From an uncultured bacterium (GTDB lineage: Bacteria; Patescibacteriota; Minisyncoccia; Phycocordibacterales; PALSA-1337), in contig CAIMDG010000001.1 in assembly GCA_903839725.1 (NCBI GenBank), positions 107,559-171,558 on the forward strand: a DNA stretch of 64,000 nt, written 5' to 3'. Shown one piece after another: positions 6,301 through 48,406 of the stretch. The position numbers and the translations under genes were made by a program. Under the pieces are notes generated by a model. The model was not told the origin of the DNA. It searched no databases and saw only the letters and a list, made by a program, of their open reading frames with translations. Numbering within the stretch: position 1 is the stretch's first letter; each line of letters begins with the position of its first letter.

Positions 6301-6504
6301 TTGCATACGCAGTAGTGTTCGTATAAATAAAAAACTCACAGAAGACTGTGAGGGGTGTGTCAGGAAGGGAGTCGGTCGGGAGGTTATGAAAGGAGGTGGG
6401 GAACCTCGCTGAAGATTGCACAGCTCCCAACCTGACACAAAAATACTCTAACATATATCTCAATTATTATCAACCCCTCGATGTTTTTCAATCTTAATTC
6501 GCGG

Positions 6505-6628
6505 AGAGACACAGGGGGTGTATGTACTCATTTTCTGCGCAAGTTTAGAGACACATACATTACACCGCGTACCCCAATGTTTACAAACTTGCGCAGAAAA
6601 TGAGTACATACACCCCCTGTGTTCTGTG
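6505..6628. repeat. Palindromic intergenic repeat, family copy A (inverted orientation relative to B/C)
   Basis: Long near-perfect hairpin; core ctcattttctgcgcaagttt...aaacttgcgcagaaaatgag shared with copies at 26407 and 29272. Confidence 0.85.
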
Positions 6629-6674
6629 CTTATAAAAGATGAAAAACATCTTATTTTCTGCTAAAGTGTGACGT

Positions 6675-9104: not shown

Positions 9105-12056
9105 ATGAAAAAATCATATATCTATCTCGTAGGCTTCACCTTTCTCTTTGTTTTGGGATTGTCATTCGTTACGGGATCGAGATTGATTGCTCAGGCACAA
9201 ACAGTAACACCTCTCAGTGGTTGGGCATGGTCATCAACTATAGGATGGCTCAGTTTTAATTCTTCAAATACAGAAATTGCAGCAGTAACAACATCACCTT
9301 ACTCCGTAAAGATTACAGTTGATTCAACTGGTAATACTGCAACATTGAGTGGCCAAGCATGGTCACCAAATATTGGTTGGGTTAGTTTTGATGCTGCAGA
9401 TGTGACAAATTGTCCAGTGGGTACATGTACTCCAACGATTAATTTGAATACAGGAGTAGTTTCTGGTTGGGCAAAAGCGCTTGCAGGAGATGGGACGATG
9501 GGATGGGATGGTTGGATAGGGCTTGCATCCACTACATGGGGAGTTTCGTATACAAAAACAACTGGAGCTTTTGGTGGATATGCATGGGGAAGTACGAACG
9601 TTGGTTGGTTATCTTTTGCAAATGTAACATGTCCATCATGTGTCGTTGCTTTGAATGTAACAAATGTAACTGTTGGTATTGGAGCTGGTAAAGTCACAAG
9701 TTCACCTTCAGGTATCGATTGTGGCATCATTTGTTCATCACAATATAGTCTGAATACCTCTGTAACATTGACAGAAGTACCAAGTGCTAATTCAACATTT
9801 ACTGGTTGGGGAGGAGCATGTAGTGGTACTGCAACGACGTGTACAGTTTCGATGAGTCAGGCAAAAAATGTTACCGCAACTTTCAGTTTGGTACCGATCA
9901 CTGTTTCTGTAAATACAACAGGTCCAGGTACTGTTACAAGTAATTTAGGAGGTATCTCATGTTCTGATGGAAATGCTGGTATATGTAGTAGTACATATGT
10001 CGCAGGCACAAATGTAACATTTACCCAAACACCAGCTGCAGGTGGAAATACATTCCAAGGCTGGGGAGGAGCATGTACAGGTACAGCGACAACATGCAGT
10101 ATTACCGTGAAAGGACATTCCGGTGATTTTGCTGCTACAACATACAATCAATGGAAGAGCCTATCTTTCTCAGCTTCTGAAATCGCTTCTGGTATAGCTG
10201 ATGAAATGTCAGACCCAGATAACGATACTGTACCAAATATCTATGAGTATGCTATCGGAACTGATCCACATGTCTTGAATCCTACTGTGGCAAATAAGAT
10301 GGCTGTGTTCCGTGGTTATAAGTCAGGAAACAATTTTGCATTTGATCACAAACTCAATACAAACCGCACAGATATAACATTTAAGGTTGGGGTAAAAACA
10401 GACCTCAGTACACCTTGGATTTATTATCCAGATGCATCTTCATTTACTGAAACTCAAAAAACGATTGATTCAGCAACAAAGTTGGTTACTGACAAAGCTG
10501 TAACTTCTTTCATGAGTGTTTCGTCAATGTATTTTGTATTCGGTATAAATAAAGGAGGTGTAGATTATTGGGCACCAGCTGCAATTTCTCCTGCCCCTAG
10601 CTTCGGTTCAGACCCAGGAACACCGGCATCAATCCTTCCATTCGTTACAGCAACATTCGTAGGAAATCCAACTCTCACACTCAATAAGAACGGTAGTGGA
10701 TCAGTTACCGATTCATCAGTTGCACCTGGCTCACCTCTCCTGCATTGCGGAACAGCGATAACAACCATACCATGTAGTAGTTCTCAGTACCCATTGAATA
10801 CCGTTGTCACTTTGACAGCTGTTCCTGCGACTGGATATACATTTACCGGTTGGAGTGGTGGAGGATGTGATGCGAATGGTCTTACCACATGTACAGTTAC
10901 TATGGATGTAAGTAAGACTGTTACAGCAACATTTACTACAGTTCCAGTTGATCTTAATGTGACAGTAACCGGCACCGGAGGCATAGTTGTTGGTGGAGGT
11001 ATATCATGTACTTCTACTGGAGGTACATCTTGTTCCGCTACGAGTCCTTCAGGAACTGTAGTGACACTGACAGCAGCTACAACATCTACCGGTATTACAT
11101 TTACAGGTTGGGGCGGAGATTGTCTCTCGAATGCAACTTCTCCAACATGTGTATTGACATTAAGTGCTACAAAAAATGTAACTGCAGTATTCGATGTTGT
11201 CGAATCTAATCTTACGGGAACATGTTCAATACCTGCGACTGCGGCTTATGCACCAATAACAATATCTGCAACTCTTAGCCCTGCTCCATCAGGTGCAAGT
11301 TGGCTCCAAACTTTCTTCTATTTCACTACACCAGGTACCTATAGTCCAACAGTTATTCTTTCGAGAAGTTCAACAGATCAGGTTGATGTTCCTTGCGGAC
11401 AAATTATTATCGCAGCTCCTGGTCCGATAGGAGGAGGGTCAGGAAATCTTACAGGAAGATGCTCATTTAGTCAGTCATCATATCCATGGTCATCTACCTT
11501 GAGTCTTACCCCAATACTCTCGAATACTTCTGGTGGTTCTGGAACTGGTTATTACTTCACACCATCGACTCTCAGTGGATTCACTCCTGGTAGTACAAAT
11601 CAACCTACAGTTACATTGCATGATGATGCCGGCAATAGTGTACCGATTACCTGTGATACATTCACCGTTGGCCTACCTGGTACCGTAACTCTTATTTCGG
11701 GCACATATAAGTTGTCTGTAGCTGGTACTCCAAGTTTGGCAAGTCAGGGAACACGAACTTCTGTTATTTCAAATAACAATGGACCAATCTATGCATATTG
11801 GCTCAGTTCGAGTGCTGGATGTACTATAAATGTGACACGCGCCTCTCTTGTCAAGACAAATCTCTATCTTACTCAATGGGCTCAGAATGGATTGCCTGTT
11901 ACAACTACGTTTGCCAAGAATGATATTAACCTTAAAAAGATATTGATGGTGGGTATACCAGATGATGATTGGAGTCTCCAGTTGATGTGCGGCGGAGTTC
12001 TGAAGGGTCCTAAGGTCAACATAACAGAAAGTGGATCAACAGTAACAGAGATATAA
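9105..12056 (+). CDS. Large secreted/cell-surface protein with Listeria-Bacteroides-type repeat domains
   Basis: Signal/TM at N-terminus; four N-terminal SGWAWSSTIGWLSF-type repeats; at least four 65-80 aa repeats with pattern C..C..Y..VTLTA.P...F.GWGG.C....C.V.M...K.V.A.F; ORF opens at TTG 9069, ATG 9105 preferred. Confidence 0.8.
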   Translation: MKKSYIYLVGFTFLFVLGLSFVTGSRLIAQAQTVTPLSGWAWSSTIGWLSFNSSNTEIAAVTTSPYSVKITVDSTGNTATLSGQAWSPNIGWVSFDAADVTNCPVGTCTPTINLNTGVVSGWAKALAGDGTMGWDGWIGLASTTWGVSYTKTTGAFGGYAWGSTNVGWLSFANVTCPSCVVALNVTNVTVGIGAGKVTSSPSGIDCGIICSSQYSLNTSVTLTEVPSANSTFTGWGGACSGTATTCTVSMSQAKNVTATFSLVPITVSVNTTGPGTVTSNLGGISCSDGNAGICSSTYVAGTNVTFTQTPAAGGNTFQGWGGACTGTATTCSITVKGHSGDFAATTYNQWKSLSFSASEIASGIADEMSDPDNDTVPNIYEYAIGTDPHVLNPTVANKMAVFRGYKSGNNFAFDHKLNTNRTDITFKVGVKTDLSTPWIYYPDASSFTETQKTIDSATKLVTDKAVTSFMSVSSMYFVFGINKGGVDYWAPAAISPAPSFGSDPGTPASILPFVTATFVGNPTLTLNKNGSGSVTDSSVAPGSPLLHCGTAITTIPCSSSQYPLNTVVTLTAVPATGYTFTGWSGGGCDANGLTTCTVTMDVSKTVTATFTTVPVDLNVTVTGTGGIVVGGGISCTSTGGTSCSATSPSGTVVTLTAATTSTGITFTGWGGDCLSNATSPTCVLTLSATKNVTAVFDVVESNLTGTCSIPATAAYAPITISATLSPAPSGASWLQTFFYFTTPGTYSPTVILSRSSTDQVDVPCGQIIIAAPGPIGGGSGNLTGRCSFSQSSYPWSSTLSLTPILSNTSGGSGTGYYFTPSTLSGFTPGSTNQPTVTLHDDAGNSVPITCDTFTVGLPGTVTLISGTYKLSVAGTPSLASQGTRTSVISNNNGPIYAYWLSSSAGCTINVTRASLVKTNLYLTQWAQNGLPVTTTFAKNDINLKKILMVGIPDDDWSLQLMCGGVLKGPKVNITESGSTVTEI

Positions 12057-28289: not shown

Positions 28290-29213
28290 TTAGAGCCAGC
28301 GTTTTTTCTTGAATACCCACCAAATTGCTGTTGCCATAAAGAACATGATGATAAGGATCAGAGTCCATCCATAAGGAAAATTGATCAAAGGGACGCGAAG
28401 TGCGGGGATTGTGAATAAGGCCGCAAGGAATGTAACCGGCTGAAATATGAACGTAGCCAAGGTCAAAACACGCATAGTCTCGTTTTGCTTTGAATTGAGA
28501 AGGGAATCGTTCGTTTCGCGAAGGTCGTCGATCAATTCACGAGCATTCGCTGAAAGTTCATAGATCTGCTCGAAATCTACTTTGATATCACGAACATATG
28601 AAACATATTCCTTGCCAAATAAGTCTTTTTCAACACTGGTTACCATGTCATCCCAGATATCACGATGTATGCGTGCTGTTTGTCTGAAGTCGATAAGTTC
28701 ACGGTTGAGATTTGAGAGGACTTCAACCATCTCACGTTCATCTCCTTTGAATATATGATTTTCTGAAGCAGTAAGGGCACCATTGATATTTTCTAGATCA
28801 TTGATCATGCCAGAATAGATACGCTTGATCATGTAGTAGAAAAGGTGGCCAGCGTGTTCGATCTTTTGGCCCTTGTCGAGAATAGCATTGGCGTCGAATA
28901 TTTTTGCAAAGTAATCAATCTGTTCGATAGTTTCTGCACGAGCAGTAATAAGGAAATTTTTACCAATAACGAAGTCAACTTCACGATCAACAATAGTGTA
29001 GATACCATCAACACGCACACGTACAGGTACAGTGAGAACGATCATAATGTACTCTTCGTAGAAGTCTATTTTTGCGCGAGAAGGAGAATCTTTGAGTTCT
29101 TCTCCAATCAATGGGTTGAGTCCATATCTTTTGATAACACCAGATATTTCCTCATTGTTGGGCGATTGTAAATCTAACCATACGAGATTGCGATGTGTGT
29201 GGGTAGTGATCAT
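28290..29213 (-). CDS. CorA-like divalent cation transporter family protein (non-canonical motif)
   Basis: Cytoplasmic alpha/beta domain plus two C-terminal TM helices; position of GMN motif reads LIN (PLINFPYGW). Confidence 0.65.
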   Translation of the reverse strand: MITTHTHRNLVWLDLQSPNNEEISGVIKRYGLNPLIGEELKDSPSRAKIDFYEEYIMIVLTVPVRVRVDGIYTIVDREVDFVIGKNFLITARAETIEQIDYFAKIFDANAILDKGQKIEHAGHLFYYMIKRIYSGMINDLENINGALTASENHIFKGDEREMVEVLSNLNRELIDFRQTARIHRDIWDDMVTSVEKDLFGKEYVSYVRDIKVDFEQIYELSANARELIDDLRETNDSLLNSKQNETMRVLTLATFIFQPVTFLAALFTIPALRVPLINFPYGWTLILIIMFFMATAIWWVFKKKRWL

Positions 29214-29271
29214 GTGTATGATTATAGCGATTTATAGTAGGGGCTGCAATGAGTAGCGCAAAGTTAAGTGG

Positions 29272-29397
29272 AACCCTGCACACAGGGGTAGTATTCTCAT
29301 TTTCTGCGCAAGTTTGTAAACATTGGGGTACGCGGTGTAATGTAAGCGTCTCTAAACTTGCGCAGAAAATGAGAATACTACCCCTGTGTGCAGGGTT
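29272..29397. repeat. Palindromic intergenic repeat, family copy C
   Basis: aaccctgcacacaggggtagtattctcattttctgcgcaagttt...aaacttgcgcagaaaatgagaatactacccctgtgtgcagggtt followed by TTTTT. Confidence 0.85.
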
Positions 29398-29438
29398 TTT
29401 GCTTTTATGCGATAATATCAATACATAATTTTTTACAC

Positions 29439-30647
29439 ATGAATACAAACAATAAGAATTTCTTGTATGCGTCAATTGGTATACCCGCAGTTATCATTGG
29501 TTTTTTTGTTGGTGTGTATGTAAATGAAAAACATGGCGTTTCTTCGATGACGGCAGAACTCAATAACACATCACTTGCTACGAGTGAACAATTTTCTACA
29601 TTTTGGGAGGCATGGAAAACTCTTGATAACAAATCTGTCTTTGCGGCTAGTACCACTCCGCAGGATAAAGTATACGGCGCGATAAAGGGACTCGCATCAT
29701 CATACGGAGACCCATACACCGTATTTTTCCCACCGGTAGAAGCTAAGATGTTCCAGGAAGATATTGCGGGGAATTTTGGTGGAGTTGGTATGGAAATTGG
29801 TATCAAGGAACATCAGTTGGTAGTAGTTACTCCAATAAAGAATAGTCCCGCATTCAAGGCGGGAGTCAAGACAGGAGATCTTATCATTAAGATTAATGGT
29901 AAAGAAACAACCGACTTGGCAGTTGATCAAGCTGTTAAACTTATCCGTGGTGAACCCGGTACCGTTGTTAAAATAATATTCTTGCCCAAGGATGCCGCCA
30001 AGACTGTTGAGCGTAGTATCACTCGTGCCATTATTGACATTCCAACACTTGAAACTGATACAAAACCAGGAGGTGTATTTGTAATTCGCTTGTTTACATT
30101 TACTGCAAATTCAGCAAGCCTATTCAGAACAGCACTTCGTCAATTTATAATGTCTGGTAATAATAAACTCGTTCTTGACCTTCGCGGTAATCCAGGAGGA
30201 TATCTTGATGCTGCATGGGACATGGCCTCATGGTTCCTTCCTACCGGAAAGACTGTGGTTACTGAAGATTTTGGTAAGAATCAATCTCCAAATGTATTTC
30301 GAAGTAAAGGATATGATGTATTTGCAGGCAAGAATTTGCACATGATGATTCTTGCTGATGGTGGCTCTGCTTCTGCTTCTGAAATTCTTGCAGGCGCTCT
30401 TCAAGAGCAGGGTATAGCCAAGCTTGTTGGAACCAAAACCTTCGGTAAGGGTTCAGTCCAAGAATTGATCTCAATTACTCCTGATACCTCACTCAAAGTC
30501 ACTATTGCTCGATGGTTGACTCCTCAGGGCCACAATCTGTCACATGATGGCCTAGAACCTGATTATAAGGTAGAGATGACCGACAAAGATATTGAAGCAA
30601 AAAAAGATCCTCAGATGGATAAGGCCGTCCAATTGTTAAATCAATAG
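29439..30647 (+). CDS. ctpA: Carboxyl-terminal processing protease (S41 family)
   Basis: N-terminal TM, PDZ domain, S41 motifs DLRGNPGGYLDAA and GSASASEILAGAL...TFGKGSVQ; ORF opens at 29388 inside repeat, start trimmed to MNTNNK. Confidence 0.85.
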   Translation: MNTNNKNFLYASIGIPAVIIGFFVGVYVNEKHGVSSMTAELNNTSLATSEQFSTFWEAWKTLDNKSVFAASTTPQDKVYGAIKGLASSYGDPYTVFFPPVEAKMFQEDIAGNFGGVGMEIGIKEHQLVVVTPIKNSPAFKAGVKTGDLIIKINGKETTDLAVDQAVKLIRGEPGTVVKIIFLPKDAAKTVERSITRAIIDIPTLETDTKPGGVFVIRLFTFTANSASLFRTALRQFIMSGNNKLVLDLRGNPGGYLDAAWDMASWFLPTGKTVVTEDFGKNQSPNVFRSKGYDVFAGKNLHMMILADGGSASASEILAGALQEQGIAKLVGTKTFGKGSVQELISITPDTSLKVTIARWLTPQGHNLSHDGLEPDYKVEMTDKDIEAKKDPQMDKAVQLLNQ

Positions 30648-32077: not shown

Positions 32078-32268
32078 GGAAATAGACCTAAAATGGCTCG
32101 TATCTCTTCAAGAAGTCCTGAAATACATACAATTAGCAGGACGCGGATATTTTTCTGCTGAAAAATTCCTAGTGCTCGCCTCAGTCAGGCTCGCAGTGTC
32201 CTGCTAATTGTATGTATTTCAGGACTTCTCCTCAACTGACGATTATTAGCCATTTTAGGGCTATTTCC
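32078..32268. repeat. Nested long inverted repeats (outer 20-bp arms enclosing inner 31-bp arms)
   Basis: Outer ggaaatagacctaaaatggc (32078-32097) vs gccattttagggctatttcc (32249-32268); inner gaagtcctgaaatacatacaattagcaggac (32112-32142) vs gtcctgctaattgtatgtatttcaggacttc (32198-32228). Confidence 0.85.
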
Positions 32269-34195: not shown

Positions 34196-34322
34196 AACTA
34201 CCAATATATATGAGCTTTGCCGAAACATCAGTGACGTGCAAATATACATGCCTAAAGAACAAAATAATTAAACGAAATCCCGCTGGGAATTGTTTCGGCA
34301 AAGCTCATATGTATTGGTAGTT
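34196..34322. repeat. Long inverted repeat (32-bp arms, 1 mismatch, 63-nt loop) downstream of M23 peptidase gene
   Basis: aactaccaatatatatgagctttgccgaaaca vs tgtttcggcaaagctcatatgtattggtagtt. Confidence 0.85.
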
Positions 34323-48279: not shown

Positions 48280-48406
48280 TACTCACCTAGGATATGACAT
48301 TGAGTTTAGATTTCGCGTAAAAATTCATCAAAATTTTATTCTATTTTCATCGAATCTTCATTTCGTTTTGATACGATTTGTTGTACGAAAGATACATTCT
48401 TTCGTC

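Follow-up and report, generated by a model that had tools for sequence, protein, structure and literature searches.

Bacterial MITEs of the Correia/NEMIS, ERIC/IRU, RUP and RPE families are non-coding sequences of 100-155 bp whose ends pair into one long stem-loop. They occupy intergenic regions in both orientations, their presence varies between related genomes, and they sometimes adjoin promoters or carry promoter or terminator activity (PMC2229807). The palindromic elements described here resemble these families in size, hairpin shape, dispersal and the occurrence of filled and empty sites, their size and shape falling within the range of bacterial MITEs (PMC2229807). They differ from them in several respects. 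Stems of the families listed above contain mispairs and reach 4-24 contiguous pairs, against 38-44 contiguous Watson-Crick pairs in the elements studied here. The 5'-TA-3' termini and the A+T-richness of bacterial MITEs are both missing, the ends being G+C-rich (CAGGGG.../...CCCCTG), and there is neither a clear target duplication nor a known partner transposase. The distribution of conserved sequence is the reverse of that expected from a transposase-bound terminal inverted repeat, as internal parts are conserved whereas the outer ends vary most. Finally, in contrast to MITE families, loops of one genome resemble each other and those of different genomes have diverged.

Three other sets of known sequences and processes invite comparison. 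REP/BIME sequences with their RAYT transposases are also palindromic, intergenic, able to form a hairpin as single-stranded DNA and species-specific in sequence; REPs measure 20-40 bp and carry a GTAG or CGTC head (PMC3733652). This assignment was rejected: the present elements, at 114-126 bp, are three to four times longer, they show no GTAG or CGTC at their ends, and the search for a RAYT/Y1 gene was negative. The attC sites of integrons, such as the 123-126 bp repeats of Vibrio cholerae, are similar to our elements in length and in forming an imperfect-to-good palindrome with a variable centre. An attC site works as folded single-stranded DNA, and attC sites show array-wide sequence similarity within a genome. 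This candidate was likewise discarded, as the elements lack RYYYAAC/GTTRRRY core sites (their ends read AACCCTG...CAGGGTT, followed by TTTG), have perfect arms with no extrahelical bases, and come without cassette array or integrase amid housekeeping neighbours on mixed strands. Also set aside were CRISPR, retron and DGR hairpins and HUH nick sites (the sequence TTACATTAC resembles the geminivirus nonanucleotide), on the grounds that diagnostic motifs or partner genes are missing or that the sister species does not share the motif. Intrastrand template switching in inverted repeats has two known outcomes: loops flipped between close relatives and restored arm complementarity. The flipped loop and the perfect arms of our elements resemble these outcomes, as known from chloroplast non-coding hairpins and from quasipalindrome template switching. 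These are, however, mutational processes and not a family of elements, and they would explain the perfection of the palindromes but not their identity.

The element under study, copy C, is a 126-base palindrome with perfect arms in the genome of an uncultivated, ultra-small bacterium of the Patescibacteria. It lies in a 64-kb stretch of DNA (hereafter, the window; G+C 40.9%). The nearest matches of the window's CysS, ValS and DnaK proteins come from MAGs labelled Pacebacteria, Parcubacteria, Taylorbacteria or Paceibacterota, which identifies the organism as a CPR bacterium. Comparisons were made with a sister species (86% identity to the window for CysS, 91% for ValS and 95% for DnaK) and with an outgroup contig, L011 (74% for CysS). 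The family to which copy C belongs, already recognised in the earlier note, has two further members in the window, copies A and B, and three in about 65 kb of sister sequence (contigs L007, L012 and L019), a density of approximately one per 21 kb (Table 1). The elements are about 105-126 bp long, with arms of 38-44 bp around an asymmetric loop of 38-39 nt. Their G+C content ranges from 0.37 to 0.49 (0.41 in the window). All are non-coding and shorter than 200 bp, and only spurious ORFs cross them. The family appears restricted to this Paceibacteria (Patescibacteria/CPR) lineage.

A covariance model built from the six copies was run on some 285 kb of DNA from the window and its relatives; it recovered only those six and the identical copies of same-strain contigs, among which a single loop SNP was seen. 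Part of copy B is found at 12696-12795 of contig L002, which continues beyond it. Two scans of viral contigs and a blastn search of phages and plasmids found no relatives of the elements. Two broader pattern scans gave matches that were rejected. The loop-anchor pattern hit one GTDB species representative (L004) by chance, in a place with no palindrome, and the inner-stem pattern hit two palindromes in JGI metagenomes (L005 and L006) that are unrelated to the family.

Table 1. Positions of copy C, its surroundings and the other members of the family (window coordinates unless a contig is named)
Feature	Position	Strand	Description
corA	28290..29213	-	307 aa, PF01544
corA promoter-like block	29221..29249	-	TTGCAG (29249-29244), 17 nt, TATAAT (29226-29221); kept in sister; putative role
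Copy C, left arm	29272..29315	.	44 nt; outer 11 nt AACCCTGCACA site-specific
Near-invariant blocks in left arm of copy C	29296-29304; 29310-29315		CTCATTTTC; AAGTTT
Copy C, loop GTAAACATTGGGGTACGCGGTGTAATGTAAGCGTCTCT	29316..29353	+	38 nt, asymmetric; sets orientation of the element
Copy C, right arm	29354..29397	.	44 nt; covers -35 position of putative ctpA promoter
T-run TTTTT	29396..29400	+	ancestral ctpA-upstream sequence; not a family feature
ctpA extended -10-like block TGCGATAAT	29408..29416	+	conserved in three species, by eye; putative promoter role
ctpA	29439..30647	+	402 aa, Peptidase_S41 + PDZ (CtpA-type protease)
Copy A	6509..6622	-	upstream of valS; loop on - strand
Copy B	26408..26527	+	between dnaB (-) and 98-aa ORF (+)
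Sister copy at site A	L012 9831-9951		ortholog of copy A, loop flipped
Sister copy at site B	L007 11736-11854		ortholog of copy B
Sister copy between rmuC and yqeY	L007 19409-19527		window counterpart without element

Copy C occupies the region between the divergent corA and ctpA genes and has the longest arms of the family, both as the earlier note had it. The arms are 100% complementary over their 44 bp, compared to 38 bp, also perfect, in copy A and 43 bp with two mismatches in copy B. Within the window, the 44-mer occurs at these two places only (none expected from 100 shuffles). The first two T of the TTTTT run that follows are the final two bases of the right arm. Folding energies were calculated at -94.2 kcal/mol (z = -15.4) for the element as single-stranded RNA and at -56.9 kcal/mol (z = -16.7) as single-stranded DNA. 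The longest ctpA ORF starts inside the right arm, at GTG 29388. Trimming this ORF call, as was done in the earlier note, is justified, since gene calls on identical contigs predict the 402 aa product (ATG 29439) and cross-species conservation begins at the same place. Other gene calls that run into elements include a 438 aa ctpA in L007 and an 86-aa ORF across site B in the P0004 contig.

Promoter-like blocks are found upstream of both neighbours. They were taken from cross-species conservation and not from a consensus promoter scan; the two-hexamer scan yielded no match to TGCGATAAT and no convincing candidate within the elements or next to them. The loop sequence TTGTAA-18-TAATGT was rejected as a promoter, as the sister loops lack the final T of the -10 hexamer. 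The corA ATG stands 7 nt downstream of TATAAT, hence the corA transcript is apparently leaderless. The TGCGATAAT block precedes the ctpA ATG by 22 nt. In the three-species alignment, both blocks lie outside copy C and face away from it, copy C filling the gap between them. The ctpA promoter would work through its extended -10 block independently of a -35, with TTTTT forming part of its upstream region; the right arm covers the -35 position, for which such a promoter would have no need. Any effect of copy C on corA or ctpA expression would be a by-product, which may involve cruciform extrusion, displaced upstream DNA or chance termination of stray + strand transcripts.

Pairing in the arms is almost complete and survives extensive sequence change. 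The six copies together hold only 4 mismatches in 246 pairs. Arms differ by 10-35% between copies, indels included, yet they stay Watson-Crick paired: in an alignment of 33 pairs (193 pair cells) 99.5% of the cells are paired, and none of 500 shuffles reached the pairing values of the alignment. Sliding the partner by one to three columns makes pairing fall to 35-55%. Fifteen of the 33 pairs vary, all of them on both sides, with no one-sided change and no G-U pair, and indels in one arm are mirrored in the other. The two-sided changes, the mirrored indels and the lack of wobble pairs suggest that the palindrome is maintained at the DNA level and not by selection on RNA. The perfection of the arms may come from arm-to-arm templated correction in DNA, through an intrastrand hairpin or template switching.

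Different portions of the elements evolve in different ways. The TCATTTTC block is invariant in all six copies and AAGTTT nearly so (AATTTT in the copy sisD), these internal parts being the most conserved and the outer arm the most variable. Outer arms match by site: those of copy B and its sister ortholog are 88% identical, and ATTCTC is common to copy C and the remnant present at site C in the sister species. Any two loops of one genome are 2-6 nt apart, those of different genomes at least 15 nt; that of copy C is nearly identical in A and B and about 40% different in the sister species. With orthologous intergenic flanks 67-71% identical, the arms are conserved at least as well as the flanks and the loops at most at flank level, that is, they evolve at least at the flank rate. 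The grouping of loops by genome and of outer arms by site, clear in the six copies that make up this small sample, indicates that copies of one genome exchange their centres or get replaced. Gene conversion may exchange the central part, or copies may be replaced at hotspot sites. As the loop is asymmetric (GTAAAC...GTCTCT), each copy has an orientation. In the window, copy A points the opposite way from B and C. The loop at site A is flipped between the species, the best match to the model being on the - strand in the window and on the + strand in L012; valS is on the + strand in both.

Comparison with the relatives revealed gain, loss and decay of copies. In the rmuC/yqeY intergenic region, the sister species has a copy; in the window the two genes are 39 bp apart and no vestige of the element is seen. 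The flanks of this sister copy show a possible, diverged 8-bp duplication (CTGTTTCA / ATTTTCCA), with 18 extra nt on one side; the empty-site counterpart reads ATGTTCCA. No target-site duplication is visible at A, B or C. At site B, about 165-190 bp, element included, are missing from outgroup L011, and a further relative has only 167 bp there (as read from the gene table). At site C of the sister species the left flank is joined to the right arm (...GTGCAAGGTGGC, AAAAAGAGAATGCTGCCCCTGTGGTGCGTGGTT and TTTATTTTTATGCGATAAT in succession); this remnant has neither the loop nor the left arm, and its right arm runs outward from CAGAAAATGAG. The outer right arm of copy C, CCCCTGTGTGCAGGGTT, has orthologous sequence at the same site in the sister species (L007) and in L011. 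In L011 the orthologous sequence is the right arm (TGTAATGCGTGGTT) of a hairpin with a 21-bp stem and a 3-nt loop. This shared outer arm suggests that copy C lies within an older palindrome specific to this site or is joined to it. Both the window species and the sister have kept copies A and B.

Two observations were made immediately around the elements. Solo sequences that resemble the inner arm adjoin copies A and C (CTTATTTTCTGCTAAAGTGT at 6650-6669, matching at 16 of 20 positions, and GCGCAAAGTTA at 29256-29266); older copies, or the process of insertion, may have left them behind. The "outer" inverted repeats around A and B were considered as proof of insertion into palindromic targets, an idea that was abandoned as they consist in part of back-to-back -10 boxes.

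Other long perfect palindromes, unrelated to the family, come and go in the same manner, and the lineage as a whole seems to be marked by long palindromes. Intergenic examples, 94-166 bp long with near-perfect arms of 26-40 nt, lie at 2695-2788, 34196-34322 and 54590-54691 of the window and in relatives (L011 2818-2934; L013 121-286 and 301-411). The first and the last of those in the window are absent from the sister species, and the first, at 2695-2788, consists of two inverted REP-like hairpins (TACCGGCGAAGGCCGGTA). A nested long hairpin is located upstream of rpmA (L27) at 32078-32268, with an inner palindrome at 32111-32229. Its arms (32 nt in the window, 33 nt in the sister, L007 6059-6246) are 100% complementary in each species despite many differences; its loop is 100% conserved over about 35 nt, and a small inner stem covaries (GCCT/AGGC versus GGGC/GCCC). 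The rpmA-upstream hairpin is probably a separate functional element or leader.

Several additional features of the window were recorded. Upstream of infA, some 100 nt (about 54480-54590, - strand) are 100% identical to L019 at about 2810-2900 and include TTGACG-17-TAGTAT, an unusually conserved leader. A G+C-rich candidate small RNA beside copy A (6335-6445, - strand) is conserved in the sister (L012, about 9640-9760) and has no Rfam match; its promoter-like sequence, TTGATA-17-TAGAGT preceded by TG, spans 6473-6445 and its terminator 6352-6335. A tRNA-like element of 73 nt (GGGGTGG...GCGGGTTCGATCCCCGTCCACTCCA, 48407-48479, + strand) has a G3:U70 acceptor stem. A second GGAGTGG 65 nt downstream (48543-48549) may indicate a reduced or permuted tmRNA, and a terminator follows at 48611-48640; ARAGORN found nothing, and the Rfam scores were 30.6 bits for tmRNA (gathering threshold 47) and 17 bits for tmRNA_permuted. 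A direct repeat of 54 nt (26562-26615 and 48324-48377, 78% identical), which L011 and the sister species also conserve, makes up the leader of the 98-aa ORF next to copy B and recurs ahead of the tmRNA-like gene, perhaps as a leader or regulatory motif common to both. Lastly, the edge of the window carries a gene for a Mrr_cat restriction-endonuclease-like protein (63177-63965, - strand). Unlike the other window proteins tested, it has no exact copy in the contig index and may thus be strain-variable.

We favour, with a probability of roughly 55%, the interpretation that the elements form a new, low-copy, MITE-like palindromic repeat of promoter spacers, kept perfect by DNA-level templating. 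The earlier note did not raise the idea of a mobile or decaying palindromic repeat. The gain, loss and decay of copies between sister species make a MITE-like selfish repeat the most likely identity, as opposed to a purpose-built terminator. The gap between two head-to-head promoters would be where copies lodge, being tolerated there by a compact genome. The resemblance to MITEs extends to the terminal inverted repeats (the whole element is one, with its 38-44 bp arms), to the dispersal in either orientation (three copies in the window, with A inverted, and three in the sister), to the filled and empty sites (rmuC/yqeY, site B in L011 and the half-copy at C) and to the small, non-coding nature of the elements. 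No transposase, integrase or reverse transcriptase gene was found in the 64-kb window by gene tables and Pfam scans. Weighing against the MITE-like interpretation are the lack of a clean target duplication, the atypical termini and base composition, the low copy number, the head-to-head bias (see below), the retention of A and B and the small sample of two species plus outgroups. In addition, the invariant inner blocks, together with arms conserved at least as well as the flanks, could reflect a binding site with a host function.

Such a function is the core of a rival explanation, by which the elements are host DNA sequences that insulate or co-regulate the two promoters of a divergent pair, either by cruciform extrusion under negative supercoiling between the diverging units or through the binding of a dimeric, fast-evolving factor to the symmetric blocks. 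The earlier note had proposed an insulator or operator role, and the placement of copy C between two outward-facing, conserved promoter-like blocks agrees with it, as does the overlap of the right arm with the ctpA -35 position. All four occupied sites are head-to-head intergenic regions, a category that accounts for 10 of the 66 intergenic regions in the window (15%) and about 36% of intergenic bases; this bias (about 0.01 by length) is suggestive. Strict Watson-Crick pairing, the TCATTTTC and AAGTTT blocks, the conservation of the arms relative to flanks and the maintenance of A and B in both species all point the same way, and the likeness of loops within a genome would fit co-evolution with one trans-acting factor. 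Yet occupancy varies: corA/ctpA has a half-copy in the sister, rmuC/yqeY has none in the window, outgroups are without the family, and seven of the ten head-to-head regions in the window have no copy. The orientation of the loop at site A is not conserved, and site A is head-to-head only if the predicted - strand small RNA is real. Moreover, cruciform extrusion is kinetically unfavourable with a 38-nt unpaired centre. On balance we regard a host role of this kind as unlikely, though less so than the rivals discussed below. A related proposal, a DNA-level module specific to the divergent promoter spacers of these CPR bacteria, with perfect arms, a loop rewritten in concert genome-wide and occasional inversion, appears rather improbable to us; the alternative to it is the ordinary neutral decay of a MITE.

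Action at the RNA level could take the form of a long-hairpin small RNA, a 5'-leader attenuator or, for copy C, an intrinsic terminator that stops + strand read-through or antisense transcription before ctpA. The RNA hairpin would be very stable, and known MITEs act as RNA hairpins (PMC2229807). To the left of B lies a conserved block, perhaps an ancestral promoter, in which case B would belong to a leader. The terminator idea, put forward in the earlier note, draws on the likeness of copy C to Rho-independent terminators, with a hairpin followed by TTTTT; a terminator scan picks out a small terminal hairpin plus the T-run, and a stable hairpin running directly into a U-run is physically present in copy C, not in the other five copies. 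The stem of 44 bp, the loop of 38 nt and the position upstream of both neighbours set copy C apart from such terminators, and the evident terminators of this lineage are short G+C hairpins with A/T tracts, stems of 7-21 bp and loops of 2-5 nt. The T-rich stretch is present upstream of ctpA in the sister (GTGGTTTTTATTTTTATGCGATAAT) and in L011 (GTGGTTGCTACTTTTATGCGATAAT), which makes it older than the full palindrome, and it sits just upstream of the conserved ctpA -10 block. Since the T-run is ancestral and confined to one copy in six, and no + strand gene lies upstream of copy C to be terminated, both neighbours being transcribed away from it, the terminator proposal is disfavoured. Copy C is unlikely to be a dedicated terminator, and its terminator look is a coincidence of the corA/ctpA site alone; a stray + strand transcript would probably stop there. 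For the RNA-level explanation as a whole, the finding of no G-U pair and no one-sided change in 193 pair cells, though 15 pairs vary, is atypical, the corA and ctpA promoter-like blocks lie outside the element and point away from it, and the loop flips between orthologs. Rfam gave no match on the window at gathering thresholds and, at permissive E-values, only generic miRNA-precursor hairpins at about half their thresholds. We thus give an RNA role a slim chance. Still smaller is the likelihood of an invertible switch, in which the arms would flip a loop carrying a weak promoter-like sequence (TTGTAA-18 nt-TAATGT) and toggle transcription between neighbours. Loop orientation does differ between the orthologous A copies of the two species and, within the window, between A on the one hand and B and C on the other. 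However, A, B and C each have a single orientation throughout six independent same-species assemblies (a weak test, these being consensus assemblies), the promoter-like hexamers are not conserved in the sister loops (TTGGAA ... TATGCC), the window has no recombinase gene, and standard recombinase synapsis needs an invertible segment of more than 38 bp. The last possibility, stand-alone guide-RNA-like units akin to the stem-loop tigRNAs of TIGR-Tas, we find scarcely credible. TIGR-Tas is common in CPR bacteria, and stem-loop TIGR units are palindrome-flanked hairpins in Patescibacteria (10.64898/2026.09.09.750476); the loop of 38-39 nt is near the 36-nt tigRNA size. Such units are characterised by a box C and a box D flanking two variable spacers and by a tandem array next to a Nop-domain tas gene, none of which is seen here: no loop has a box C (RUGAUGA) or box D (CUGA) on either strand, the copies are singletons dispersed some 3 and 20 kb apart with no tandem array, their loops are nearly identical within a genome, and the window contains no Nop-domain or Tas gene.

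The genomes of CPR/Patescibacteria are tiny and tightly packed, and their mobile and repeated DNA is little characterised. Enteric bacteria destroy very long perfect palindromes. The present CPR genomes tolerate them, and gain and lose them within the time that separates sister species. The palindromes also lead gene prediction astray, as with the ctpA start inside the element and the sister's 438-aa call through the remnant, and they break assemblies, given that contigs end inside them; contig L008 of this lineage, for one, ends (at 11804) within the palindrome. At corA/ctpA, the analysis separates promoter bases from passenger bases. If the module with a loop rewritten in concert were real, it would imply a trans-acting partner that recognises or templates the loop, candidates being a structure-specific recombinase, a HUH-type enzyme or an RNA or DNA template. 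A loop that depends on a dedicated partner would amount to a new system of DNA-hairpin recognition; should there be none, the family would illustrate how arm-to-arm correction and loop inversion take place naturally in palindromes of bacteria.
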